Assembly (NCBI GenBank): GCA_037076615.1
Contig: AP029158.1
Coordinates: 463,717 to 527,716 of the forward strand
Reading direction: 5' to 3'
Length of the DNA stretch: 64,000 nt
From: Candidatus Parcubacteria bacterium
Lineage (GTDB): Bacteria; Patescibacteriota; Patescibacteriia; Patescibacteriales; UBA12465
Below the pieces are notes generated by a model. The model was given only the letters and a program-made list of their open reading frames with translations, did no database searches and was not told the DNA's origin. A program made the translations under genes and the position numbers. Of the stretch, positions 3,250-64,000 are shown piece by piece. The first letter of the stretch is position 1; each line of letters opens with the position of its first letter.

Positions 3250-3266
3250 AAACTTATCATACCACA

Positions 3267-4493
3267 CTATTTTTTATTTTCGAGAAGAGCCAAAGTTTCG
3301 GTCGCACAGCGATACCAGCAAAATTTCTTGGCTTGACGAAATCCGCGCTCTTTTAACTCCGCTCGTAATTCTTTATTTAAAACTAACTCCGCCATCGCCT
3401 CGGCAATCTCGGTATAATCAAGGTGATTAAAATAACGAACCGCCTCACCGGCCACCTCCCTTAAAACAGAGATATCGGAAACGGCCGTCGGCACTCCTGA
3501 AGCCAAAGCTTGCAAAACCGGAATACCAAAGCCTTCGTGTTTAGTGGGAAAAATAAAAGCGGTCGCCTGCTGAAAAATTAACGGTAGCTCATTTTCTTTA
3601 ACCCAGCCCGGCATAATCACCTCGCGCTCTAAATCAAATTCCTCAATAACATACTTAACCTCGTCGTAGCCATAACTGGCATTACCAATTAAAACTAATT
3701 TTTCTTTAATTTCCGGATACTCTTCTCTTAAAAAGGCAAGCGCCTCAACTAAGGCGACCGTATTTTTCTTTTTTTCCAAGCGGCCGACATATAAAAAATA
3801 GGGGCGGGTAATACCGTAACTATCCAAACAACGATCGGCTTCGGAATTCGTGCCGCCGTTGGGTTCGTATAACTCTGAAGCAAAGCCGTTATGAATAACT
3901 TTAATTTTTCCTGGGTCAGCGAAAGGAAAACATTCTAAAATTTCTTGCTTAGTAAAATCAGAAACAGTGATAATTGTTTCCGAGTGGCGCAAGGAAAAAA
4001 TCGTGGACCAAAAAAGATAATCCAAGCTCGTGCCCTGGTAACGACCGCCGCTAAAAACTTTAACCAAAAACTTAATAAAATTACGGCGCTTGGCACTGCG
4101 CGCTTTCGGCGCTTCCGGACGATAAACAGCCTCTTCGCGAGCAAAGGCAATATCATGAATAGTATTAATCGTGCGGCGCGGATGAATTAAGGGAATCCCG
4201 TGGGCGGGAACAAATAAAACATCGGGACGACGAAATAACATCTCTAAAGACAAACGCCCTAGAGTCCAAAAAGAAGTGAGTGGCCAAGACAAAACCCGAA
4301 ACTCAAAATTAGGCGCCTCGGCGACGATCGCCTTTAACTCCGCCGTCGGAATCTGATCCAAATAAAGGCGATAACGGTTATGACGATCAAGACGGGCGAG
4401 CTCTCTGATTAGATAAAAAGAATACCACTCCGTGCCGGTCTTTTTTTGTCTGTTGGCGCGTGAAGCGTCAATACCAATCAACATAAAGCGCAA
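3267..4493 (-). CDS. Glycosyltransferase family 1
   Basis: 408 aa. C-terminal GT1 motif PTKHEGFGIPVLQALASGVPTAVSD. Confidence 0.75.
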   Translation of the reverse strand: MRFMLIGIDASRANRQKKTGTEWYSFYLIRELARLDRHNRYRLYLDQIPTAELKAIVAEAPNFEFRVLSWPLTSFWTLGRLSLEMLFRRPDVLFVPAHGIPLIHPRRTINTIHDIAFAREEAVYRPEAPKARSAKRRNFIKFLVKVFSGGRYQGTSLDYLFWSTIFSLRHSETIITVSDFTKQEILECFPFADPGKIKVIHNGFASELYEPNGGTNSEADRCLDSYGITRPYFLYVGRLEKKKNTVALVEALAFLREEYPEIKEKLVLIGNASYGYDEVKYVIEEFDLEREVIMPGWVKENELPLIFQQATAFIFPTKHEGFGIPVLQALASGVPTAVSDISVLREVAGEAVRYFNHLDYTEIAEAMAELVLNKELRAELKERGFRQAKKFCWYRCATETLALLENKK

Positions 4494-37191: not shown

Positions 37192-38160
37192 TTATTCAGT
37201 CGCCAACCTTATTTCCCCACACTTCCCGTTAGTAGCATCAACAGCATCAAAAATATCGTCAATGTTCGGCTCGTAAGCGGATAGTTTAGTGCCATCTTTT
37301 AAGGTTAGCTCCACAAATTCTTGATGACTTTGAAAAGCCTCCTCCACTTCACAATTATTAATCGCTTCTAAGAGGATGGGCCAGGTGCTATTGGCCTCGT
37401 TTACAAAAGAGCGGTTATCAGGAGTCAAGCAAAGATTGGGGTTAGTTTCATCAACTTTTAAGCCAGCAGCCACACAATCATCATAATTTCTAATTCCATC
37501 TAAGAGAGCCTGACAATAGTCATGGCTGCCCCAATCGCTGGCAACCAAACAAACAGCCAAACGATCTTTAATAGTGGTTTGCGAAAGAGTAATAGTCTTA
37601 ACAATCTCTTCCACTAAGGCGTCAAGATTGAAATCAGCCTGCTCTTTTTCACAAGCGGTCTTCTCCGGGTCGTCATAGTTAACGCATTGCGGATAGCCAA
37701 GGAAGAAAGAAATAACTCCGGTTTGGCCGGCCAGGGGGAAATAATAACTATAGTTTTTGTAGATGGTGCCGGCCGCTCCCTCAGAATAAGTGGAAACGCA
37801 GTAAGAACGACCATCAATTGTCTTCTCAGCTTTCCAAATTCCCGGCGATGACTCATTGCCGACAGGATTACAAGAATAAGGGGCATTTAAAACAATTAAT
37901 GTTGGTGACCAGTCTCGAGAAGAAATGTATTTTGTCTCAAGTCTAGGCGGATAACTGTAGGATTCACCGGTATCGGTAACGCTAAACACCCAGTCGGCGG
38001 GGAGATTAATTCCAGAAGAAATATCGCGCTGGCCGTCATCATTTGTCACTAAAACGGCGGCGGCGATCATCACTAAACCAAGGGCGATTAAAAGCAAAAG
38101 GGGCCCATAATGGAAGGGTCTCTTGGTGGTGGTTTTTTTAAAAGAATTTTCAGGTTCCAT
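37192..38160 (-). CDS. Hypothetical Cys-rich exported or membrane-anchored protein (orphan)
   Basis: 322-aa ORF. N-terminal TM/signal anchor (LLLLIALGLVMIAAAVLV), many Cys residues. Terminator follows. Confidence 0.45.
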   Translation of the reverse strand: MEPENSFKKTTTKRPFHYGPLLLLIALGLVMIAAAVLVTNDDGQRDISSGINLPADWVFSVTDTGESYSYPPRLETKYISSRDWSPTLIVLNAPYSCNPVGNESSPGIWKAEKTIDGRSYCVSTYSEGAAGTIYKNYSYYFPLAGQTGVISFFLGYPQCVNYDDPEKTACEKEQADFNLDALVEEIVKTITLSQTTIKDRLAVCLVASDWGSHDYCQALLDGIRNYDDCVAAGLKVDETNPNLCLTPDNRSFVNEANSTWPILLEAINNCEVEEAFQSHQEFVELTLKDGTKLSAYEPNIDDIFDAVDATNGKCGEIRLATE

Positions 38161-38252
38161 ATGTTTTTTAAAATTAAAGAAAACGAAGTCTTCTTAAGAG
38201 AATAATAGCAAATTTAAGGATTTTGGGGAATTGGATTAAAAAAGGTTAAATT

Positions 38253-39112
38253 TTAAAATCTCAACCAGTTTGGCGGAATCAGATCGCTATCATCCGCCTT
38301 ATCATTAGCAAACCATTGTTTTGGAGCGATTATTATTTTTGTAGGGTTACTAATTAACCATGCGCCCCACCAAGAAAATGAGCTATTAGCGACAACACCG
38401 TGACGGCACTGGCTCATTAAAGCAAGCTCTTCAAAGTCTTGGAGATTACCATCGGAAACGTAAACTGCATCTTCAATTTTTAGGTAATCTTGAACCCAAG
38501 AAATATCATCAGAAAAAATAAAAAACCTAGGATTTTTTACCTTCCCTCTCATAAACTTGACCGCTCGCTCGTAGTAATCCAAAGGACAAAGACCTAAAAA
38601 TTTATTAGCGGCGCTATTTGAAACATAATCACCACGACGAATATGAACAAAGATTGATTCAGATTCAGTAATATTTAGATTAGTATTTAAAGGAGTTTTT
38701 AATTTAAACTCTTCATTTAAAATATCCACTATATCCTCAAAGTATTTATAACTTTGAAAAAACCCTGTTAGCCAAATATTATCTTTAAGCCGTAAAATAT
38801 TAGAATCAAAGCCGACTCCATTTTCAAAATAATATTTTTTTAAATAAAATCGAGTCTTTAAACCAATTTTCCTTAATATTTTATGAAGTAGGTTTATTTT
38901 TTTATAAATAAGGCCAGCGGGATTATTACTTACCGCTTTAATATTATAGAGATTTAATAAATATTGACGTGGTGTATCCGAACCACCATAGGGGGGGTCA
39001 GATAACTATAATCAATATTTATTTCAGTATTATTCTTTAGCGCCAGTTGGCGAGCAACAGCGTACTGGAATAGTTGATTGCCAAGCCCACCTTTTATTTT
39101 TAAATTGACCAT
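38253..39112 (-). pseudogene. GT11 alpha-1,2-fucosyltransferase, reading frame broken at a C7 (G7 on + strand) homopolymer
   Basis: ATG at 39112 gives MVNLKIKGGLGNQLFQYAVARQLALKNNTEINIDYSYLTPP, then runs out of frame after the tract at 38991-38997. The next frame continues ..YGGSDTPRQYLLNLYNIKAV...HIRRGDY... to the stop at 38253. One extra C would give an intact 286-aa protein. Confidence 0.75.
38991..38997 (-). repeat. Homopolymer G7 (+ strand) / C7 (coding strand) at the fucosyltransferase frameshift
   Basis: Read directly: ...accata ggggggg tca... at 38991-38997. Confidence 0.9.
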
Positions 39113-39852
39113 AAACTTAAAAATATCCTTAAAATAGATTTTAATTTTGCCTTAAAGTAGCCAGGATAATCTTTTTTATATTTATTAATTATTTGATTAG
39201 TAACAATCGCTATTTTATACTTATTTTTTTTAGAAATCCCTTCATTATGTATAAGATAAGCGACAAGCGGTTCGCCAATATTTGCCAATCTAAAATTGCG
39301 TCCGATTTTTAACCATAAATCGAAATCTTCACAAACAACTAAAGATTCATCATAGCCAGCAACTAAATTAAATACTTCTTTTTTAAATAAAACACTGGAT
39401 TGGGCAAATTGATTTTTAAATAAAATTTTTTTTCTAATTGAATTATCTTGAGTTTTAAAAATATCTTCTTTTATTTTAATTCCCTTCTCATTAAAACAAA
39501 TAATGCCAGTACCAACTAACCCAACTCTACTATCTTGATTGAATATATTTAATTGTTTTTGCAGTTTATTATTATCTAACCAATAATCATCACTATCTAG
39601 CATGGCAATATATTCCCCCCTAGCCATGGAAATGCCTAAATTACGACTTTTAGAAATACCTAAATTGATATTATTCTTATAATATTTAATCCTTTCATCA
39701 GTTAAACTACCAATTAAAATTCCCGTATCATCAGTTGAAGCATCATCAATAATTATTAACTCAATATCTTTATAGGTCTGTAATAAAACACTCTTTATAG
39801 CTATTGAAAGTAAATCGGAACGATTGTAGGTACAAATAATAACAGAAATCAT
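39100..39852 (-). CDS. Glycosyltransferase family 2
   Basis: 250 aa. MISVIICTYNR, IIDDASTDDT, AMLDSDD (DxD). Confidence 0.8.
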   Translation of the reverse strand: MISVIICTYNRSDLLSIAIKSVLLQTYKDIELIIIDDASTDDTGILIGSLTDERIKYYKNNINLGISKSRNLGISMARGEYIAMLDSDDYWLDNNKLQKQLNIFNQDSRVGLVGTGIICFNEKGIKIKEDIFKTQDNSIRKKILFKNQFAQSSVLFKKEVFNLVAGYDESLVVCEDFDLWLKIGRNFRLANIGEPLVAYLIHNEGISKKNKYKIAIVTNQIINKYKKDYPGYFKAKLKSILRIFLSLWSI

Positions 39853-39863
39853 AAGTGAAAAAA

Positions 39864-40787
39864 TTATTTCTCTACCAATTCTGCTAGCCCAATAGCATTA
39901 TCTTTATGAATAAAAATTAAATTATCATAAACATATTTATCTTTTGCTTTGTGTAAACTAAGGTTTCCATTCACATCACACTCATATGCTATATAATTAT
40001 TTGTTAATAAAATATCAATAGACTTACGGCAATTATCCTTCCATTCATCCTCGCCAGCAACCTCAATACTAATAACCGGTTTTAATTCTTTCATAATATA
40101 ACCCATGCCTTCCAGAATAAGATGTTCTGCGCCCTCAGCATCAATTTTAATAAATGTTGGAGTTATATTATGTTTTTTACAATAATCATCAAGAACAGTT
40201 GTTTTAACTTTTATCTCAATAGCATTCTTCCTCAAAAATTTAGTGTCGTCAGATGTTCTTTTTCTAAATCCATTAAAAGCACTAAATTTAGGACCATAAT
40301 CTATAAAATTTATTTCTTTTTCCTCATTAAGAACGGCGAGATTATTGATAATTACATTACCACTTTCTTTTGTGTTTATTTTTAAAGATGAGAAAGTTCT
40401 TGGTGTCGGCTCAAAACTATAGACACGCCCAGAATCTTCAACCAACCGAGAGCACAAAACGGTATAGTAGCCAACGTGAGCACCAACATCTAAAAAACAA
40501 TCTCCCTTTTTGAGAAAATTTAATAAAAAAATAGTTAAATTTGCTTCAAAAAACCCATAATAAAGAATTGCCTGGCCTTCTGGTAAAAAATAAGTCATTT
40601 TATCACCCCATAAAGTTTTTACCCTGACTTTATAAGGATGAATTCGAGCTATTATGGCTAAAACGTAAAAAAACAATGTTCTAATTGGATCTTTAACTAA
40701 CCTCAAAAAACGATTATTATTTATTTTATAAAGCTCATGCCTTTTCAAAACTTTTTCTTTTAACAATTCCCTTTCCTCACTATTCAT
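39864..40787 (-). CDS. FkbM-family SAM-dependent methyltransferase
   Basis: 307 aa. FLDVGAHVGYYT SAM-binding motif, IKIDAEGAE motif typical of the FkbM family. Confidence 0.7.
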   Translation of the reverse strand: MNSEERELLKEKVLKRHELYKINNNRFLRLVKDPIRTLFFYVLAIIARIHPYKVRVKTLWGDKMTYFLPEGQAILYYGFFEANLTIFLLNFLKKGDCFLDVGAHVGYYTVLCSRLVEDSGRVYSFEPTPRTFSSLKINTKESGNVIINNLAVLNEEKEINFIDYGPKFSAFNGFRKRTSDDTKFLRKNAIEIKVKTTVLDDYCKKHNITPTFIKIDAEGAEHLILEGMGYIMKELKPVISIEVAGEDEWKDNCRKSIDILLTNNYIAYECDVNGNLSLHKAKDKYVYDNLIFIHKDNAIGLAELVEK

Positions 40788-40793
40788 ATTTTT

Positions 40794-41897
40794 TTAATTA
40801 TTTTTATAAACCTCTAAATATTTTTCTACCATCTCGGCAACAGAAAACCTATCAGTAGCGGCTAGCACTGAGCTATCTTTAAATAACAGCTGCAGAAAAT
40901 CATCTAAGTTATTTACTTCAAAACAATTCTCTTGACCAACTACCTCACTATTGCCACCAACATCACTGGCGATAGTCGGCACGCCCGACTTCAAGGCTTC
41001 AATAAGAGAAATAGATAAACCTTCATAAAGAGAGGGTAAAACAAAGACATTAAAAGCTTTAATAAAGCGGCTGGCTTCAGAAACTGCGCCCATTAAAAAA
41101 AACTGCCGCTCTAAACCTTTTTCTTTGATAAGTGTTTCATACTTTTCTCGCTCCGGACCTTCACCAATTATTACTCCTTTGGCATCAGGTTTTATTTTTA
41201 ATATCTCGGAGAAAGAATCAATTAAAAATTCATAATTTTTTGGAAAAGCTAGGCGACCAATAGAGCCAATAATATAAGCTTGGCTAAGATCCTCGCCAAG
41301 GCGATCAGAAATAAATTGTCGCGCCTCTTCTCGGTTTTTAAAATAACCACTCGGGAAATCTAAGCCGTTATAAATTAGAACGCCTTTTTTGGCGATGCCT
41401 AATTTTTTGGCAGTATTTAAATTATGCTCACTAACAAAAACCACCTTGTCGGTAAACCTTAGAAAGAATTTGAAAAAAGCCTTAAACCCTAATTTTATCA
41501 AAGGACTACTTTTATAATTCTCATCTAAAACCGATAGCCCGTGAACGGTAAAAATAACCCCTGGCTTAGGACCGCAAAGCTTGGCGGCCAGGGCTCCGGG
41601 TAAAGTGTTAGAGCTATTAAGATGAACAATATCAAAGCTTTCTCTCTTAATAACTCCTTTTAACTCTTTAATAAAAGATAAGATTTGAAAAGGATTACGG
41701 CTCCGCTTTAAGCTACCTAATCTGATTGTTTTTATTCCTGCCGGCGCTAGCTTCTCGGCCAAAAAATCACCCTCACCAAAAGCAACCACGACTTCGTGAT
41801 CTTTATGTTTAAGTCCTTGAGCGAGAGCTAAAATAAACGACTGGGCCCCGCCTATTTCGCCTTTGGTAATAACCAACAAAATCTTCATATTACCCAA
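40794..41897 (-). CDS. Glycosyltransferase family 1
   Basis: 367 aa. N-terminal KGEIGGAQSF. C-terminal PSLYEGLSISLIEALKSGVPTIASDVGG. Confidence 0.75.
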   Translation of the reverse strand: MGNMKILLVITKGEIGGAQSFILALAQGLKHKDHEVVVAFGEGDFLAEKLAPAGIKTIRLGSLKRSRNPFQILSFIKELKGVIKRESFDIVHLNSSNTLPGALAAKLCGPKPGVIFTVHGLSVLDENYKSSPLIKLGFKAFFKFFLRFTDKVVFVSEHNLNTAKKLGIAKKGVLIYNGLDFPSGYFKNREEARQFISDRLGEDLSQAYIIGSIGRLAFPKNYEFLIDSFSEILKIKPDAKGVIIGEGPEREKYETLIKEKGLERQFFLMGAVSEASRFIKAFNVFVLPSLYEGLSISLIEALKSGVPTIASDVGGNSEVVGQENCFEVNNLDDFLQLLFKDSSVLAATDRFSVAEMVEKYLEVYKNN

Positions 41898-41899
41898 TA

Positions 41900-42151
41900 T
41901 TATACCAGTTTGTTTTTAATATTCCTATTTTCCACCCCCTCCTCCAAATAGAAAAGTTTATCAATCGGCGTAGCGAGCTCGGCGGCAATCGTGAGCGCTA
42001 ATTTTAGCGAGGGATTGTACTTCCCTTGTTCTAAAAAAACAATGGTCTCCCGCCGCACCCCAACCCGCACCGCCAGATCTTCCTGGGTTAACCCCTGCTG
42101 CAAGCGACACTCTTTTAAATTGACGCCTAGCTCCTTATTTTTTCCAGGCAT
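41900..42151 (-). CDS. XRE-family helix-turn-helix transcriptional regulator
   Basis: 83 aa. [36 protein letters not shown]. Confidence 0.8.
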
Positions 42152-43847: not shown

Positions 43848-44396
43848 TTAATTATCCCCATATATTCCGGGAGAACAGATCCCTATCGCAACCTTTCCAT
43901 ATGGGCCATCGCTGTACTGATTTAACTGACTCTCCATTACGATATTTTTTTTCTTAAAAAAGGCAATCATACTTTTATCTTCTTCGAAGGTGTCTTCCAG
44001 TAAATATAAAACATCATCATTTTCACTAATTTTTTTTAAATTAACTGGACCATTAAACATTAAATCTCTCCTCATACGGGGAGTATCCGTTTGTAAGTCC
44101 ATTAAAATAATGTTAGTAGCAAACGTAAGGATGCCTGAGCTCGTAACAATTTTCTCACCTATCAATCTAGCGGTTGATTCTCCTATTAAGTTGCACGTAA
44201 CATTATTAGAAAAATTATCAGCTTCTGCCCAATATTCACCGATGTTTATTTCTGGACTGCCAGTATAATATTCATGAAAAGCTTTATGCTCTTCGTCCAT
44301 TACCGCTCCTGAGTGGGAAAGATATAAAAACAAAATTAGAAAAACAAGGAGACCCAAAACAACACTAATTAATAACACTAACTTGTTTCTTTTCAT
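43848..44396 (-). CDS. Hypothetical membrane-anchored protein (orphan)
   Basis: 182-aa ORF with an N-terminal TM helix. An extended -10 element lies upstream and a terminator downstream. Confidence 0.4.
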   Translation of the reverse strand: MKRNKLVLLISVVLGLLVFLILFLYLSHSGAVMDEEHKAFHEYYTGSPEINIGEYWAEADNFSNNVTCNLIGESTARLIGEKIVTSSGILTFATNIILMDLQTDTPRMRRDLMFNGPVNLKKISENDDVLYLLEDTFEEDKSMIAFFKKKNIVMESQLNQYSDGPYGKVAIGICSPGIYGDN

Positions 44397-44423
44397 AAAA
44401 AACTAATTAATTATTATGTTTTA

Positions 44424-44432
44424 ATTATACCA
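44424..44432 (-). promoter_or_regulatory. Candidate extended -10 promoter (TGgTATAAT) for the 43848-44396 gene
   Basis: Minus strand reads gTGgTATAATtaaaac, about 28 nt upstream of the ATG at 44396. Confidence 0.35.
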
Positions 44433-44433
44433 C

Positions 44434-44459
44434 AAAAAACACCCTAGCGGGTGTTTTTT
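44434..44459 (-). terminator. Intrinsic terminator immediately after the duplicated tRNA-Ser 3' end
   Basis: Minus strand AAAAAACACCC-GCTA-GGGTGTTTTTT. Confidence 0.7.
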
Positions 44460-44463
44460 ATAT

Positions 44464-44488
44464 GCGGAGAGCAAGGAATTACGAACCC
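44464..44488 (-). repeat. Direct repeat of the tRNA-Ser 3' end (acceptor 3' strand plus T-arm 3' half)
   Basis: The + strand GCGGAGAGCAAGG at 44464-44476 is identical to 44671-44683. It then continues aATTaCGAACCC versus gATT-CGAACCC in the tRNA. Confidence 0.85.
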
Positions 44489-44627
44489 GTCGCTTCGCTC
44501 CCCTCAGGGGGCTTCCGCCCTCTTAGGCACTCCTCATTTCATTCGTCGCTGACACCCCCGCAAAAACGGTGGGAAACCTAGGTTTCCCAAACCCTTCCTA
44601 GGGTTCGAATCTTTTCATAACCAACCC
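44489..44627 (-). other. Body of tRNA-Ser-linked non-coding module (module A)
   Basis: 139 nt without a plausible ORF. Contains anti-T-arm GATTCGAACCCT (44600-44611), an 18-nt perfect palindrome (44571-44588), ACGAATG (44540-44546) and a GGGC-GGAA-GCCC hairpin (44509-44520). Confidence 0.5.
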
Positions 44628-44670
44628 TCATACAACAAAGACGCCCCCTTGGGGCGTCTTTGTTGTATGA
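44628..44670 (-). terminator. Perfect 20-bp hairpin directly after tRNA-Ser
   Basis: TCATACAACAAAGACGCCCC / GGGGCGTCTTTGTTGTATGA with a 3-nt loop. GC-rich core flanked by A-rich and T-rich arms. Confidence 0.6.
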
Positions 44671-44671
44671 G

Positions 44672-44756
44672 CGGAGAGCAAGGGATTCGAACCCTTGATA
44701 CCTTGCGGTATACACGCTTTCCAAGCGTGCGCACTAGACCACTATGCGAGCTCTCC
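44672..44756 (-). tRNA. tRNA-Ser (anticodon GGA), class II with long variable arm; CCA not encoded
   Basis: Minus strand GGAGAGC-TC-GCATAGTGGTCTAGTGC-G-CACGC-TTGGAAA-GCGTG-TATACCGCAAGGTATC-AAGGG-TTCGAAT-CCCTT-GCTCTCC-G. Hand-folded cloverleaf. Confidence 0.9.
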
Positions 44757-44804
44757 AAAAGCGCCCGAAGGCGCTGAGGGGTAAAATTAAATCCGAAAAC
44801 AGAA

Positions 44805-62355: not shown

Positions 62356-63303
62356 ATGAGCTCTGATAAAATAACAATTGTTTTTGCCGGCACCCCGGAA
62401 TTCGCCCAGCCTAGTCTAGAAAGCTTAGCGACTGATACCCGTTTTGAAATTTTAGGGGTGATTACCCAACCGGACCGGCCGGCCGGGCGCGGCCAAAAGC
62501 TCGCTCCAAGCGCCATTAAACAGACAGCGTATAAATTAGGATTACCGGTTTGGCAACCTACCCGGATTAAAGATTTAGCCGCTGATTTAAAAAAGTTAGC
62601 GCCGGATTTTTTAGTGGTGGTCGCTTACGGACAAATCTTACCTTTAGAAATTTTAGAGATTCCCAAACAGGGAGCGATTAATCTTCATGGTTCCCTGTTG
62701 CCTAAATACCGAGGGGCCGCTTGTGTGGCGGCACCGATTTTAAACGGCGATCCGGTAAGCGGCGTAACGATTATGCTTATGGATGTGGGGTTAGACAGTG
62801 GCCCGATTCTAGATCAGAAAACAATCAATTTAGACTCCAGAGAAACCGCGGCCACTCTTCATGACAAGTTAAGCCAGCTAGGCGCCAGTCGTTTAGGCGA
62901 TGTCTTGGCGGATTTCTATACTGGAAAAATTACCCCCAAAAACCAACCCTTGGTCGGTATTTCCTATTTTCCAACTTTAAATAAAGAAGCCGGTTTAATA
63001 AATTGGCGCAAAGAAGCGCTGCTTTTAGACCGCGAAGTGCGAGCCTACTACCCGTGGCCGGGAAGTTTCACCACCTGGAGTGGACGCCGGCTGAAAATAA
63101 TCCGCGCTGAAGTCTGGGAGGGTGAAAATTTAGAAGAGGGGTTATCGGGAGCCGTTTTAATGGTTGATAAAAAATTATTAGTTAGCTGTGGACAAGGGTT
63201 TTTAAATATATTAGAATTACAACTTGAAGGTAGCCGGTCTTTAACTGCGGTTGACTTTTTAAGCGGTCACGGGCAAATTATTGGCAGTCGGCTTGGCCTT
63301 TAG
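62356..63303 (+). CDS. fmt: Methionyl-tRNA formyltransferase
   Basis: 315 aa. IVFAGTPEFA, NLHGSLLPKYRGAA, C-terminal beta-barrel domain. Confidence 0.9.
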   Translation: MSSDKITIVFAGTPEFAQPSLESLATDTRFEILGVITQPDRPAGRGQKLAPSAIKQTAYKLGLPVWQPTRIKDLAADLKKLAPDFLVVVAYGQILPLEILEIPKQGAINLHGSLLPKYRGAACVAAPILNGDPVSGVTIMLMDVGLDSGPILDQKTINLDSRETAATLHDKLSQLGASRLGDVLADFYTGKITPKNQPLVGISYFPTLNKEAGLINWRKEALLLDREVRAYYPWPGSFTTWSGRRLKIIRAEVWEGENLEEGLSGAVLMVDKKLLVSCGQGFLNILELQLEGSRSLTAVDFLSGHGQIIGSRLGL

Positions 63304-63309
63304 GAAAAT

Positions 63310-63381
63310 GGTCCCTTCGTCTAACGGTTAGGACGCCAGGTTCTCATCCTGGTAACAGGGGTTCGATTCCCCTAGGGACTA
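63310..63381 (+). tRNA. tRNA-Glu (anticodon CUC); CCA not encoded
   Basis: GGTCCCT-TC-GTCT-AACGGTTA-GGAC-G-CCAGG-TTCTCAT-CCTGG-TAAC-AGGGG-TTCGATT-CCCCT-AGGGACT-A. Hand-folded; resembles bacterial tRNA-Glu. Confidence 0.9.
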
Positions 63382-63383
63382 CT

Positions 63384-63420
63384 AAACAAAACAACACCTC
63401 AGAGAGGTGTTGTTTTGTTT
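63384..63420 (+). terminator. Perfect 17-bp hairpin directly after tRNA-Glu
   Basis: AAACAAAACAACACCTC-AGA-GAGGTGTTGTTTTGTTT. Confidence 0.6.
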
Positions 63421-63582
63421 AGACGGCGTTAGCCGCGGGAATCGAACAGGTTGGAAATGAGTCAAATCCGAGCCGCTATTTCGAGCGGCGAGGATACAGA
63501 CGAATGTCGGACAATATGCCGGGGGCATATTGAACGCCAACCCTGGACAAGTGAGCTTTTCGGAAGAAAAGCGAGCGCGATA
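63421..63582 (+). other. Body of tRNA-Glu-linked non-coding module (module B)
   Basis: 162 nt. Anti-T-arm GGGAATCGAAC (63437-63447), hairpins GCCGCT/AGCGGC (63472-63489) and CAATATGCC-GGG-GGCATATTG (63512-63532), closing pair GGCGTT/AACGCC (63425-63430 / 63533-63538), ACGAATG (63500-63506), GCTTTTC-GGAA-GAAAAGC (63555-63572). Confidence 0.5.
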
Positions 63583-63600
63583 ATTCCCCTAGGGACTACT
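63583..63600 (+). repeat. Direct repeat of the tRNA-Glu 3' end
   Basis: ATTCCCCTAGGGACTACT is identical at 63366-63383 (tRNA 3' end plus 2 nt) and 63583-63600. Confidence 0.9.
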
Positions 63601-63811
63601 GATTAAAACAAAAGAAGACACATCTTTAGATATGCCCTTTTTCTTACTTATCTATATTTTAGTTAGGTTGGCAGGTATTGAAATAAAAATCGGCGATTTC
63701 GCAGTGTGAATAATTCGCTCGAAAAATAAACTCTCCTTCTTTAGTACAAAAATTTCAACTTCAATTATAATTTCACCTGAAAATATTAACCTTAGTATAG
63801 ATGATTGCCAA

Positions 63812-64000
63812 TTACAAATCTGCCGGTACGCTCTGTAATTTATTGATTAATGGTCGGTCCGAAGAAACCGGAATATCAAAATGAAATTCTGTCTTCCCTA
63901 CCAAACCATCAGGACCCTGCTCCACCACCACCAATATTTCTTTTTCCCGAAGTTTTTTAGTGAGCTCTTGATAATAATTGGCAGCCAACTCATCAGACAT
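63812..64000 (-). CDS. Small hypothetical protein
   Basis: 62-aa ORF whose ATG is the last codon of the window. No recognisable domain. Confidence 0.3.
   Translation of the reverse strand: MSDELAANYYQELTKKLREKEILVVVEQGPDGLVGKTEFHFDIPVSSDRPLINKLQSVPADL

Follow-up and report, generated by a model that had tools for sequence, protein, structure and literature searches.

The tRNA-Glu(CUC) locus

The subject of this report is a 217-bp interval associated with the 3' end of a transfer RNA (tRNA) gene near the right end of the window, which is a 64,000-nt stretch of contig AP029158.1 from a Candidatus Parcubacteria bacterium. The gene, tRNA-Glu(CUC), is intact and was located on the + strand at 63310-63382 by ARAGORN and at 63310-63381 by the Rfam tRNA model (62.5 bits), in agreement with an earlier sequence-only reading of this DNA. 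A sigma-70-like site (TTGGCA-17-GAAAAT, 63281-63309) lies immediately 5' of it. The 18-mer ATTCCCCTAGGGACTACT is found at 63366-63383 and again, without a single change, at 63583-63600, which is the repeat and the offset of 217 bp reported in that reading. Its identification of the repeat with the tRNA 3' end also stands, but the start had been placed at the 3' half of the T-arm and lies three bases earlier, inside the T-loop, so that in tRNA numbering the repeat extends from A58 to C74 plus one T. Exact copies of the 16-mer core of the repeat are limited to these two in the window, where a search permitting three mismatches would be expected to yield 0.30 chance matches, and no third copy of the 18-mer was found in the window or in a 1.1-kb extension past 64000.

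Directly 3' of the tRNA is a perfect hairpin with an A-rich 5' flank and a U-rich 3' flank. It had been described as a 17-bp hairpin at 63384-63420; it is indeed perfect, but its arms are 19 nt long (63382-63400 and 63404-63422), 100% complementary and separated by a 3-nt loop, and it overlaps the final two bases of the tRNA-Glu call. The hairpin is of the terminator type and is part of the inserted unit. Between it and the second copy of ATTCCCCTAGGGACTACT lies a structured segment of ~160 nt, in which an inverted-repeat search revealed GGGAATCGAAC (63437-63447), which matches the T-arm of the tRNA (63361-63371) exactly in reverse complement. This 11-nt segment and the closing helix P2 were absent from the earlier reading. 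The features of the locus are as follows, where MFE denotes the minimum free energy fold and R1 the covariance model of the family described below.

63310-63382, + strand: intact tRNA-Glu(CUC), of which the part from A58 on is the left repeat copy (ARAGORN, Rfam tRNA model)
63366-63383, + strand: repeat copy 1 (T), tRNA positions 58-74 plus 1 nt, attL-like junction (exact 18-mer)
63382-63422, + strand: perfect hairpin with 19-bp arms, 3-nt loop, 5' A-tract and 3' U-tract (inverted-repeat search)
63424-63435, + strand: P0, a small hairpin CGGC-GTTA-GCCG present in Glu-associated units, with GGC/GCC changed to GCC/GGC in other Glu copies (by eye, unscored)
63437-63447, + strand: 5' segment GGGAATCGAAC, reverse complement of tRNA positions 53-63, forming P1 with the start of the tail (inverted repeat, MFE fold)
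63449-63542, + strand: P2 (GGTTGG 63449-54 / CCAACC 63537-42), which closes a three-way junction with P3 (63457-63505) and P4 (63508-63536) (RNAalifold, pair counts)
63543-63582, + strand: invariant joiner CTGGACAA, then the P5 hairpin, then the invariant 3' end GCGAU(A) (invariant columns, pair table)
63583-63600, + strand: repeat copy 2 (tail T), attR-like, tRNA positions 58-74 plus 1 nt (exact 18-mer, MFE fold)
63430-63606, + strand: match to R1 (140.5 bits, E 1.8e-40), the sole R1 match in the window
63812-64000, - strand: 3' end of a convergent Radical_SAM/UPF0004 (MiaB/RimO-type) gene, outside the element and forming the right bound of the insertion (L165 335-1573(-), Pfam PF04055 and PF00919)

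The two 18-mers behave like the left and right junctions of an insertion, attL/attR-like, with an identity block that begins in the T-loop and reaches the 3' end of the tRNA. They would look no different had they arisen by duplication of a 17-bp target.

A family of units at tRNA genes

Related loci, designated here by L numbers, were collected by two routes. The fmt gene upstream of tRNA-Glu served as the anchor for comparing this locus in species-representative genomes, and metagenomes were scanned with a pattern consisting of the stretch identical in the first three copies, namely the one in the window and two in L004. The scan returned at least 80 loci, and ~55 of those listed are true members, the others being noise from GC-rich coding sequence. 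The covariance model R1 was built from 40 copies; it has 77 matches in the 65 loci fetched, among the loci listed, and also recovers a divergent subfamily B (GGACAACGA...GAGGCGGA).

In ~30 cases the module ends 192-206 nt 3' of a tRNA gene on the same strand. The host tRNAs are Glu(CUC, UUC), Ser(UGA, GGA, GCU, CGA), Gln(UUG, CUG), Trp, Gly, Ala and Asp, while the Cys, Arg, Leu and Pro tRNAs on the same contigs have no module. The tail of each unit consists of positions 58-74 of its own local tRNA, and this block is duplicated behind 25 of the 41 tRNAs in the metagenome loci. The order of the parts is constant: the tRNA is followed by a long perfect hairpin, a short linker, the 5' segment GGGA(A/T)TCGAAC, the core, an invariant GGACAAGUGAGC-hairpin-G(C/U)GAGCGCGAU, 0-1 A, and positions 58-74 of the local tRNA. 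The module measures 169-174 nt in nearly all copies (184 nt in two) and terminates in GAU(A) or GAC. Every unit has the hairpin, with a median perfect arm of 18 bp; its sequence varies with compensatory changes and follows the subtype of the core.

Patescibacteria are tiny symbiotic bacteria, and the protein-less unit of roughly 215 bp is common in them and previously uncatalogued. At gathering score Rfam 15 detected only tRNA in the window and in three multi-copy loci, and at E<=10 it gave no credible match within 63290-63820. A full-text literature search found no published description of such a unit, blastn found no match to it in phage and plasmid records, and pattern scans found no copy in viral contigs, where 14 returned loci were coding-sequence noise and L085 was a chance match in coding sequence. 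A phage contig, L084 (IMGVR_UViG_3300020045_015966), has an intergenic match at 3250-3420 that is limited to the ...GACAAGUGAGC-hairpin-GAGCGCGAU 3' domain (14.6 bits), located between a terminase-like open reading frame (ORF) and a small ORF that by eye appears DNA-binding (excisionase-type). Among known RNAs considered for the module, a tRNA or transfer-messenger RNA on the opposite strand was rejected, as it would lack a T-stem and is not called by ARAGORN. The core motifs of the hammerhead, hepatitis delta virus-like and twister ribozymes and of group II domain V do not fit, in a comparison made by eye only.

Fold and covariation of the module

The single-sequence MFE fold of the module in the window has a free energy of -66.9 kcal/mol (z = -3.9), and none of 200 shuffled sequences was as stable. 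In this fold GGGAATCGAAC pairs with the start of the downstream repeat and thereby closes the whole module; the first 6-7 nt of the tail (63583-63600) are paired with the 5' segment and the other ~10 nt, corresponding to the acceptor 3' strand, are predicted to be unpaired. RNAalifold applied to a MAFFT alignment of the family gave a three-way junction, with P2 enclosing P3 and P4, followed by the hairpin P5, and 24 of its 29 pairs are compensatory. The helices P2, P3 and P4 are paired in 99.6%, 86-100% and 96%, respectively, with double changes in all of them.

The same structure was evaluated in 58 copies aligned to the model. Standard pairs occupy 94.4% of the cells against 68.0% when columns were shuffled, a level that none of 500 shuffles reached, and pairing drops to 29-41% when the partners are slid along the alignment. 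The covariation score is 0.677 compared with 0.217 for the shuffled columns. The sequence-only reading had proposed looking for compensatory changes across homologous copies, and double changes were found here at 27 of the 29 base pairs. Its central expectation, that the two copies of the tRNA 3' end enclose a non-coding, structured module, is thus borne out, homologues with compensatory changes being abundant. Three of the four helices that it listed are backed by covariation: GCCGCT/AGCGGC is the apex of P3 (GAGCUGC/GAGCAGC in L127), CAATATGCC/GGCATATTG is P4 and GCTTTTC/GAAAAGC is P5. The fourth, GGCGTT/AACGCC (63425-30 / 63533-38), is not, since GGCGTT belongs to the local hairpin CGGC-GTTA-GCCG at 63424-63435 and AACGCC to the base of P4 and to P2.

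Strong purifying selection on the module structure is indicated by these comparisons, which demonstrate a conserved, covarying, folded RNA-like structure and mark the module as a candidate new family of structured RNA. The alignment further contains 96 G·U cells and 21 A·C cells, or 48 and 21 when one invariant U·G is set aside, and this excess of G·U favours the tRNA-sense strand as the putative functional strand. A tandem G·A motif of the form GC-GA...GA-GC is present in both P3 and P5, the latter being GUGAGC...GCGAGC with the invariant U·G. The invariant U·G, the tandem G·A motifs and the invariant joiners would favour RNA over DNA as the molecule that folds.

The ends of the module follow the tRNA

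The 5' segment changes with the T-loop of the local tRNA, the observed combinations being GGGAAT/GATTCC, GGGATT/GAATCC, GGACT/GAGTCC and GGGAG/ACTCC. It pairs with tail positions 58-64, the uninterrupted run averaging 6.3 pairs in cognate and 4.8 pairs in non-cognate combinations, and position 59 covaries in four ways: U59-A, A59-U, G59-C (tRNA-Ala, L127) and C59-G (L088). Longer P1 matches occur in L154, where GAGAGGAUU pairs with AAUCCUCUC, and in L111, which has 11 pairs. Furthermore, the CGAAC of the 5' segment is complementary to tRNA positions 53-57, a stretch that is not in the tail. The 5' end of the module therefore represents the bottom strand from 53 to ~64 and its 3' end the top strand from 58 to 74. 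Because the 5' end is complementary to the T-arm and forms pairs with the first part of the tail, the attachment sequence itself provides the foundation of the fold.

Boundaries and neighbouring genes

The sequence-only reading had left room for a larger insertion continuing past the window and had noted an orphan 62-aa ORF at its edge. Metagenome contig L165, which is identical to the window over the shared part and runs 1.1 kb past 64000, bears on both points. The extension carries only a convergent gene for a 412-aa Radical_SAM/UPF0004 protein of the methylthiotransferase type, and the supposed orphan is the C-terminal end of this gene, which crosses the window edge; an exact-protein lookup of the 62-aa ORF returned no record. 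A terminator-like site on the - strand (63638-63615) belongs to the same gene. There is no integrase in the window or in the 1.1-kb extension, and a larger island is excluded for 1.1 kb beyond the window. The copy in the window is a minimal unit and not the edge of an island.

The 217-bp unit is itself non-coding, and the neighbours of 55 loci do not supply the integrase that would be expected of a tyrosine-integrase island. Clustering of 309 neighbouring ORFs revealed no recurrent recombinase, transposase, TnpB/IscB or reverse transcriptase, nor was any found among the tested cargo proteins; the recurrent families were Fic and housekeeping. No ORF for a DEDD recombinase, TnpB or IscB flanks any examined copy.

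Within the window, the region 38000-42000 has a low GC content (30-35% against ~43%) and encodes glycosyltransferases of GT11, GT2 and GT1/GT4 with an FkbM methyltransferase and no mobility genes. It is probably a variable surface-polysaccharide cluster.

Gain, loss and stacking of units

At the fmt-tRNA-Glu locus the unit is carried by the closest relatives, L004 and L131. The closest of all is L004, a Patescibacteria metagenome-assembled genome (MAG) with 77% fmt identity, in which the same tRNA-Glu is followed by a hairpin of other sequence and a module 87% identical to that in the window; a second copy of the unit lies 1.5 kb further on, behind a Fic gene, and the tails are decayed. In the more distant relatives L005, L006 and L063, fmt is followed by tRNA-Glu(CUC) with no unit, and R1 finds nothing. 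The locus thus combines direct repeats of the tRNA 3' end, an intact tRNA gene and empty sites in (distant) relatives, as integrative elements do. Three Logan contigs (L001-L003), from independent assemblies of this organism, that end at 63373, inside tRNA-Glu, were considered as a possible insertion polymorphism and rejected as an assembly effect, because 31-mers are shared there between the Glu-CUC and Glu-UUC genes.

Units also occur in tandem, as in L124, in L161 and L106, which carry subfamilies A and B in either order, and in L108, which has four T copies. In L149 a duplicated unit shows an internal deletion and C-to-T decay. The hairpin, linker and core are common to different tRNA-Ser loci, and copy b of L150 has the 5' segment of copy a despite a different local T, which implies that the interior moves or is converted while the T copies stay local. 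The locus comparisons show that units have been gained and lost, and have also been duplicated, behind the 3' ends of numerous tRNA genes. In L154 (38-3430), two units on opposite strands lie behind tRNA-Ser(CGA) and tRNA-Asp(GUC), with a tRNA-Arg(CCG) 29 nt after the module of the Ser unit. A different and far shorter duplication was observed in L012 (10999-11070), a MAG labelled Gammaproteobacteria, in which the last 12 nt of tRNA-Glu(CUC) recur 55 nt downstream.

Gene islets of 1-4 kb are found between units and encode Fic, CYTH, ORF6N, a PEP-utiliser-domain protein, LRR proteins and others. Fic-domain cargo lies between units in six loci (L131, L004, L086, L112, L127 and L162; for example L004 11297-12325 on the - strand). 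On its right side an islet is joined through a sequence that resembles a T-arm but has 7-8 nt inserted in its loop, such as CCGTTCCAACTATA|TCCCAGTCCCCGAGC. Acceptor remnants preceding distal units had been considered as decayed T copies and are instead this distinct type of islet junction. These T-arm-like junctions suggest a second class of insert at the same tRNA site, and, as islets and units share that site, several kinds of insert use it.

Some further details of these regions were noted. The right end of the Fic islets at Glu loci is a conserved stretch of ~70 nt terminating in ...ATTTTAAGACTACT. T-arm-like islet junctions (CCGTTCCAACTATA|TCCC..., CAGTTCGGATATAG|TCCC...) lie in the ~40 nt 5' of the distal hairpins in L163, L153, L108, L092, L114, L143, L086 and L112. 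The conserved motif GGGACGAAGCGAGTCTAAAAGC directly follows the tail in L086, L101, L114 and L133 and may be another small element. In L114, L133 and L161 there is a family of small uncharacterised ORFs; a 77-aa stretch of its representative has no Pfam match.

The module at tRNA-Ser(GGA)

The sequence-only reading had taken the region behind the other tRNA gene discussed here, tRNA-Ser(GGA) at 44671-44756 on the - strand, to hold the same kind of module. This holds for the architecture and fails for sequence and model homology. The Ser gene is followed by a 20-bp perfect hairpin (44627-44671) with about 150-160 nt behind it, including a segment GATTCGAACCC complementary to its own T-arm, and the module ends in GGGTTCGTAATTCCTTGCTCTCCGC, a near-complete copy of the T-arm and acceptor at 44464-44488. 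R1 run with filters off over 44300-44800 gave no match to this module, and blastn found no similarity between the Ser and Glu modules. What they share is only the arrangement of a hairpin, ~160 nt, inverted ends derived from the T-arm and a repeat of the tRNA 3' end. The Ser module may be a separate sister family built on the same logic.

Interpretation

We put at about even the chances that the 217-bp interval belongs, as a single copy, to a family of miniature, protein-less cassettes inserted site-specifically in the 3' part of tRNA genes in Patescibacteria. The unit would consist of a strong hairpin terminator, which would now end the tRNA transcript, an RNA-like module of ~170 nt in the tRNA sense, and a second copy of positions 58-74. 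Insertion would be site-specific, with an identity block extending from the T-loop as far as the 3' end of the tRNA, in the classical arrangement by which the tRNA gene is restored. As no enzyme for movement is ever found next to a unit, it would be encoded at another place in the genome. The RNA, or the same strand as single-stranded DNA (ssDNA), would recognise or present the T-arm site of the tRNA, in a guide-like or site-mimicking manner. The attachment core is included in the fold, which also follows the target, so that a role of the module in recognising or presenting the site is more likely than one as unrelated cargo. The mechanism may take one of three forms, namely a guide-like RNA for a recombinase, a folded ssDNA mimic of the target as in CTXphi, and RNA-catalysed, intron-like joining. 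A programmable insertion directed to tRNA T-arms, in which the target-matched ends of the module RNA would guide a recombinase encoded elsewhere or an RNA-catalysed joining, is a more tentative proposal that we regard as rather unlikely.

Several observations weigh against the insertion of a mobile cassette with a functional RNA. No candidate recombinase was identified anywhere, and mobilisation in trans is an assumption. Neither a free or circular form nor a population-level polymorphism of empty and filled sites was seen. The relatives with empty sites are only 42-50% identical in fmt and do not distinguish gain here from loss elsewhere, and the near-identical cores at different tRNAs could have arisen by gene conversion among residents and not by transposition. 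The hairpin resembles an efficient terminator and no promoter-like site was found in the window sequence between it and the module, such that transcription of the module is putative and the structure could act as ssDNA. The specificity of P1 is modest, because the T-arms of different tRNAs are alike. Finally, the alignment of 58 copies (A3) was fitted to the structure of the model, which somewhat inflates its paired percentage, the result based on MAFFT being in agreement.

The interval might alternatively be what is left of a large integrated island or prophage, with attL in the tRNA, a nested or leftover attR, and the remainder deleted or located beyond the window. Direct repeats of a tRNA 3' end starting from the T-loop are the classical signature of tyrosine-integrase islands, and in other loci gene islets share such sites. 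Yet the unit is constant in size across dozens of independent loci and seven tRNA species (module 169-174 nt, two at 184; tRNA to tail 192-206 nt), its interior is under structural selection, and neither a third repeat nor an integrase accompanies it in the window or 1.1 kb beyond; this reading is already largely refuted and we hold it to be very improbable. A resident, non-mobile companion RNA of tRNA genes, acting on the neighbouring tRNA (for instance through pairing with its T-arm or 5' acceptor strand) in processing, quality control or as a decoy and multiplied by local duplication, would account for the strong purifying selection on structure. It would also suit the finding that the free 3' tail complements the 5' acceptor strand of the tRNA and the 5' segment its T-arm, and that both tRNAs of the 64-kb window have such a module. 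Its difficulty is that the units are patchy among relatives, form tandem arrays of different subfamilies, include decaying copies and are associated with Fic and ORF6N islets, which are the habits of a selfish insertion and not of a housekeeping partner, and that many tRNAs (Cys, Arg, Leu, Pro) on the same contigs do without one. We therefore give it little credence.

Two further explanations share with the cassette proposal a role for the ends of the module. One is an intron-like or trans-splicing ribozyme that would ligate tRNA positions 1-57 to the copy of 58-74 which it carries, acting either in cis, on transcripts that read through, or in trans, on tRNA fragments, with CGAAC as an internal guide pairing with the end of the 5' exon (GUUCG, 53-57) and GGGAAU pairing with the start of the 3' exon (the tail, from A58 on); spread by reverse splicing into T-loops would be possible. 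The complementarity of the 5' segment is indeed unbroken across the tail start (57|58), the core is conserved and includes two tandem G·A motifs as well as joiners that are single-stranded and invariant, and a protein is never adjacent. A group I intron, however, is opposed by the lack of an RF00028 match even at E<=10, by the lack of a P3/P7 pseudoknot topology in the covariation model and by the putative splice sites, where the 5' one has a G-C pair in place of U·G and the last base is U, A or C and not G. For group II the module of ~150 nt is too small. Moreover, most precursors would end prematurely at the strong terminator lying within the 'intron', splicing would change nothing as both tRNA 3' ends are identical, and the 5' segment of the Ser module hardly passes the tail start, so that the guide reading is not general. 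A ribozyme of this kind is thus improbable. The other explanation is a folded ssDNA attachment site as in CTXphi, in which the duplex of 5' segment and tail would copy the T-loop and T-stem and a host tyrosine recombinase (Xer) would integrate it. With the bottom strand from 53 to ~64 in the 5' segment and the top strand from 58 in the tail, P1 is a mimic of the target in which the junction bulges slightly (0-1 extra A). The neighbouring ORFs provide no recombinase in cis, a promoter for the module is not evident, and DNA hairpins tolerate G·T wobbles. A core of ~140 nt with invariant unpaired sequences, U·G and tandem G·A nevertheless resembles a functional RNA more than it does a spacer between two half-sites, no genes of single-stranded phages or rolling-circle elements are associated, and the viral contigs, phage and plasmid records searched hold no copy. 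This explanation also appears doubtful.

If the proposal of a protein-less cassette is correct, a widespread class of strongly covarying RNA of ~170 nt would join the very sparse catalogue of non-coding RNAs (ncRNAs) in Patescibacteria, and the tRNA genes of minimal genomes would serve as docking sites for stacks of tiny protein-less cassettes in addition to integrase-bearing islands. It would then become a testable question whether the site at tRNA genes is chosen by pairing of nucleic acids or by the protein-DNA contacts of an integrase. Should the more tentative proposal of programmable insertion be true, protein-less cassettes and small islets could be inserted at chosen tRNA genes, and accumulate behind them, by an RNA-directed process. 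The process would form a new class of RNA-directed integration, apart from bridge RNAs, omega RNAs and self-splicing introns. Annotators would do well to recognise the units, since they cause assemblies to break and leave tRNA 3' ends in duplicate.

Comparison with known systems

Islands and prophages in tRNA genes are integrated by a tyrosine integrase with crossover in the T-loop (sites of the Reiter 1989 and Williams 2002 type). The units resemble them in the direct repeat from T-loop to 3' end, the restored gene, the tandem elements at one tRNA and the empty sites in related genomes. They differ in measuring ~215 bp, in having no integrase or other protein gene and in an interior that consists of one structured RNA-like module with an inverted attachment core. 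Elements mobilised in trans, such as the cis-mobilizable elements related to streptococcal integrative and conjugative elements and miniature inverted-repeat elements, likewise have att sites or inverted ends, lack recombination genes and are multicopy. Those elements derive by deletion from a known autonomous parent, whereas no parent or enzyme was found among the 77 copies here, and the inverted ends of the present units come from the target and differ with the tRNA that is targeted.

The bridge (seek) RNAs of IS110/IS1111 and the omega RNAs of IS200/IS605 are also structured ncRNAs of ~150-200 nt at the edge of a mobile unit, with variable segments that match both strands of the target. In the present units the 5' segment and the tail match both strands of the T-arm and 3' end, but these variable segments are terminal and pair with each other instead of lying in internal loops, and the tail may be a mere junction repeat. 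There is, in addition, no adjacent DEDD recombinase, TnpB or IscB, and no Rfam match. The folded single-stranded attP of CTXphi, which is used by the host Xer recombinases, is similar in having two inverted, imperfect copies of the target ~100-150 nt apart, a fold that mimics the site and no recombinase of its own. Here, by contrast, the target is the T-arm of a tRNA and not dif, the spacer is a conserved multi-helix core, and there are no filamentous phage genes.

The nearest account in the literature concerns group I introns in Patescibacteria tRNA genes (PMC13011429). These are self-splicing, fit the group I model and interrupt the anticodon loop (at 35/36 and other positions). They have in common with the units the phylum, a protein-less structured RNA in a tRNA gene and a guide-like segment that complements both sides of a tRNA position, but the module described here stands behind an intact tRNA and is without group I hallmarks. 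The units follow a known theme, integration at the 3' end of a tRNA gene, and combine it with features that are unprecedented: a miniature size, no protein gene, and a covarying RNA that takes its ends from the target.

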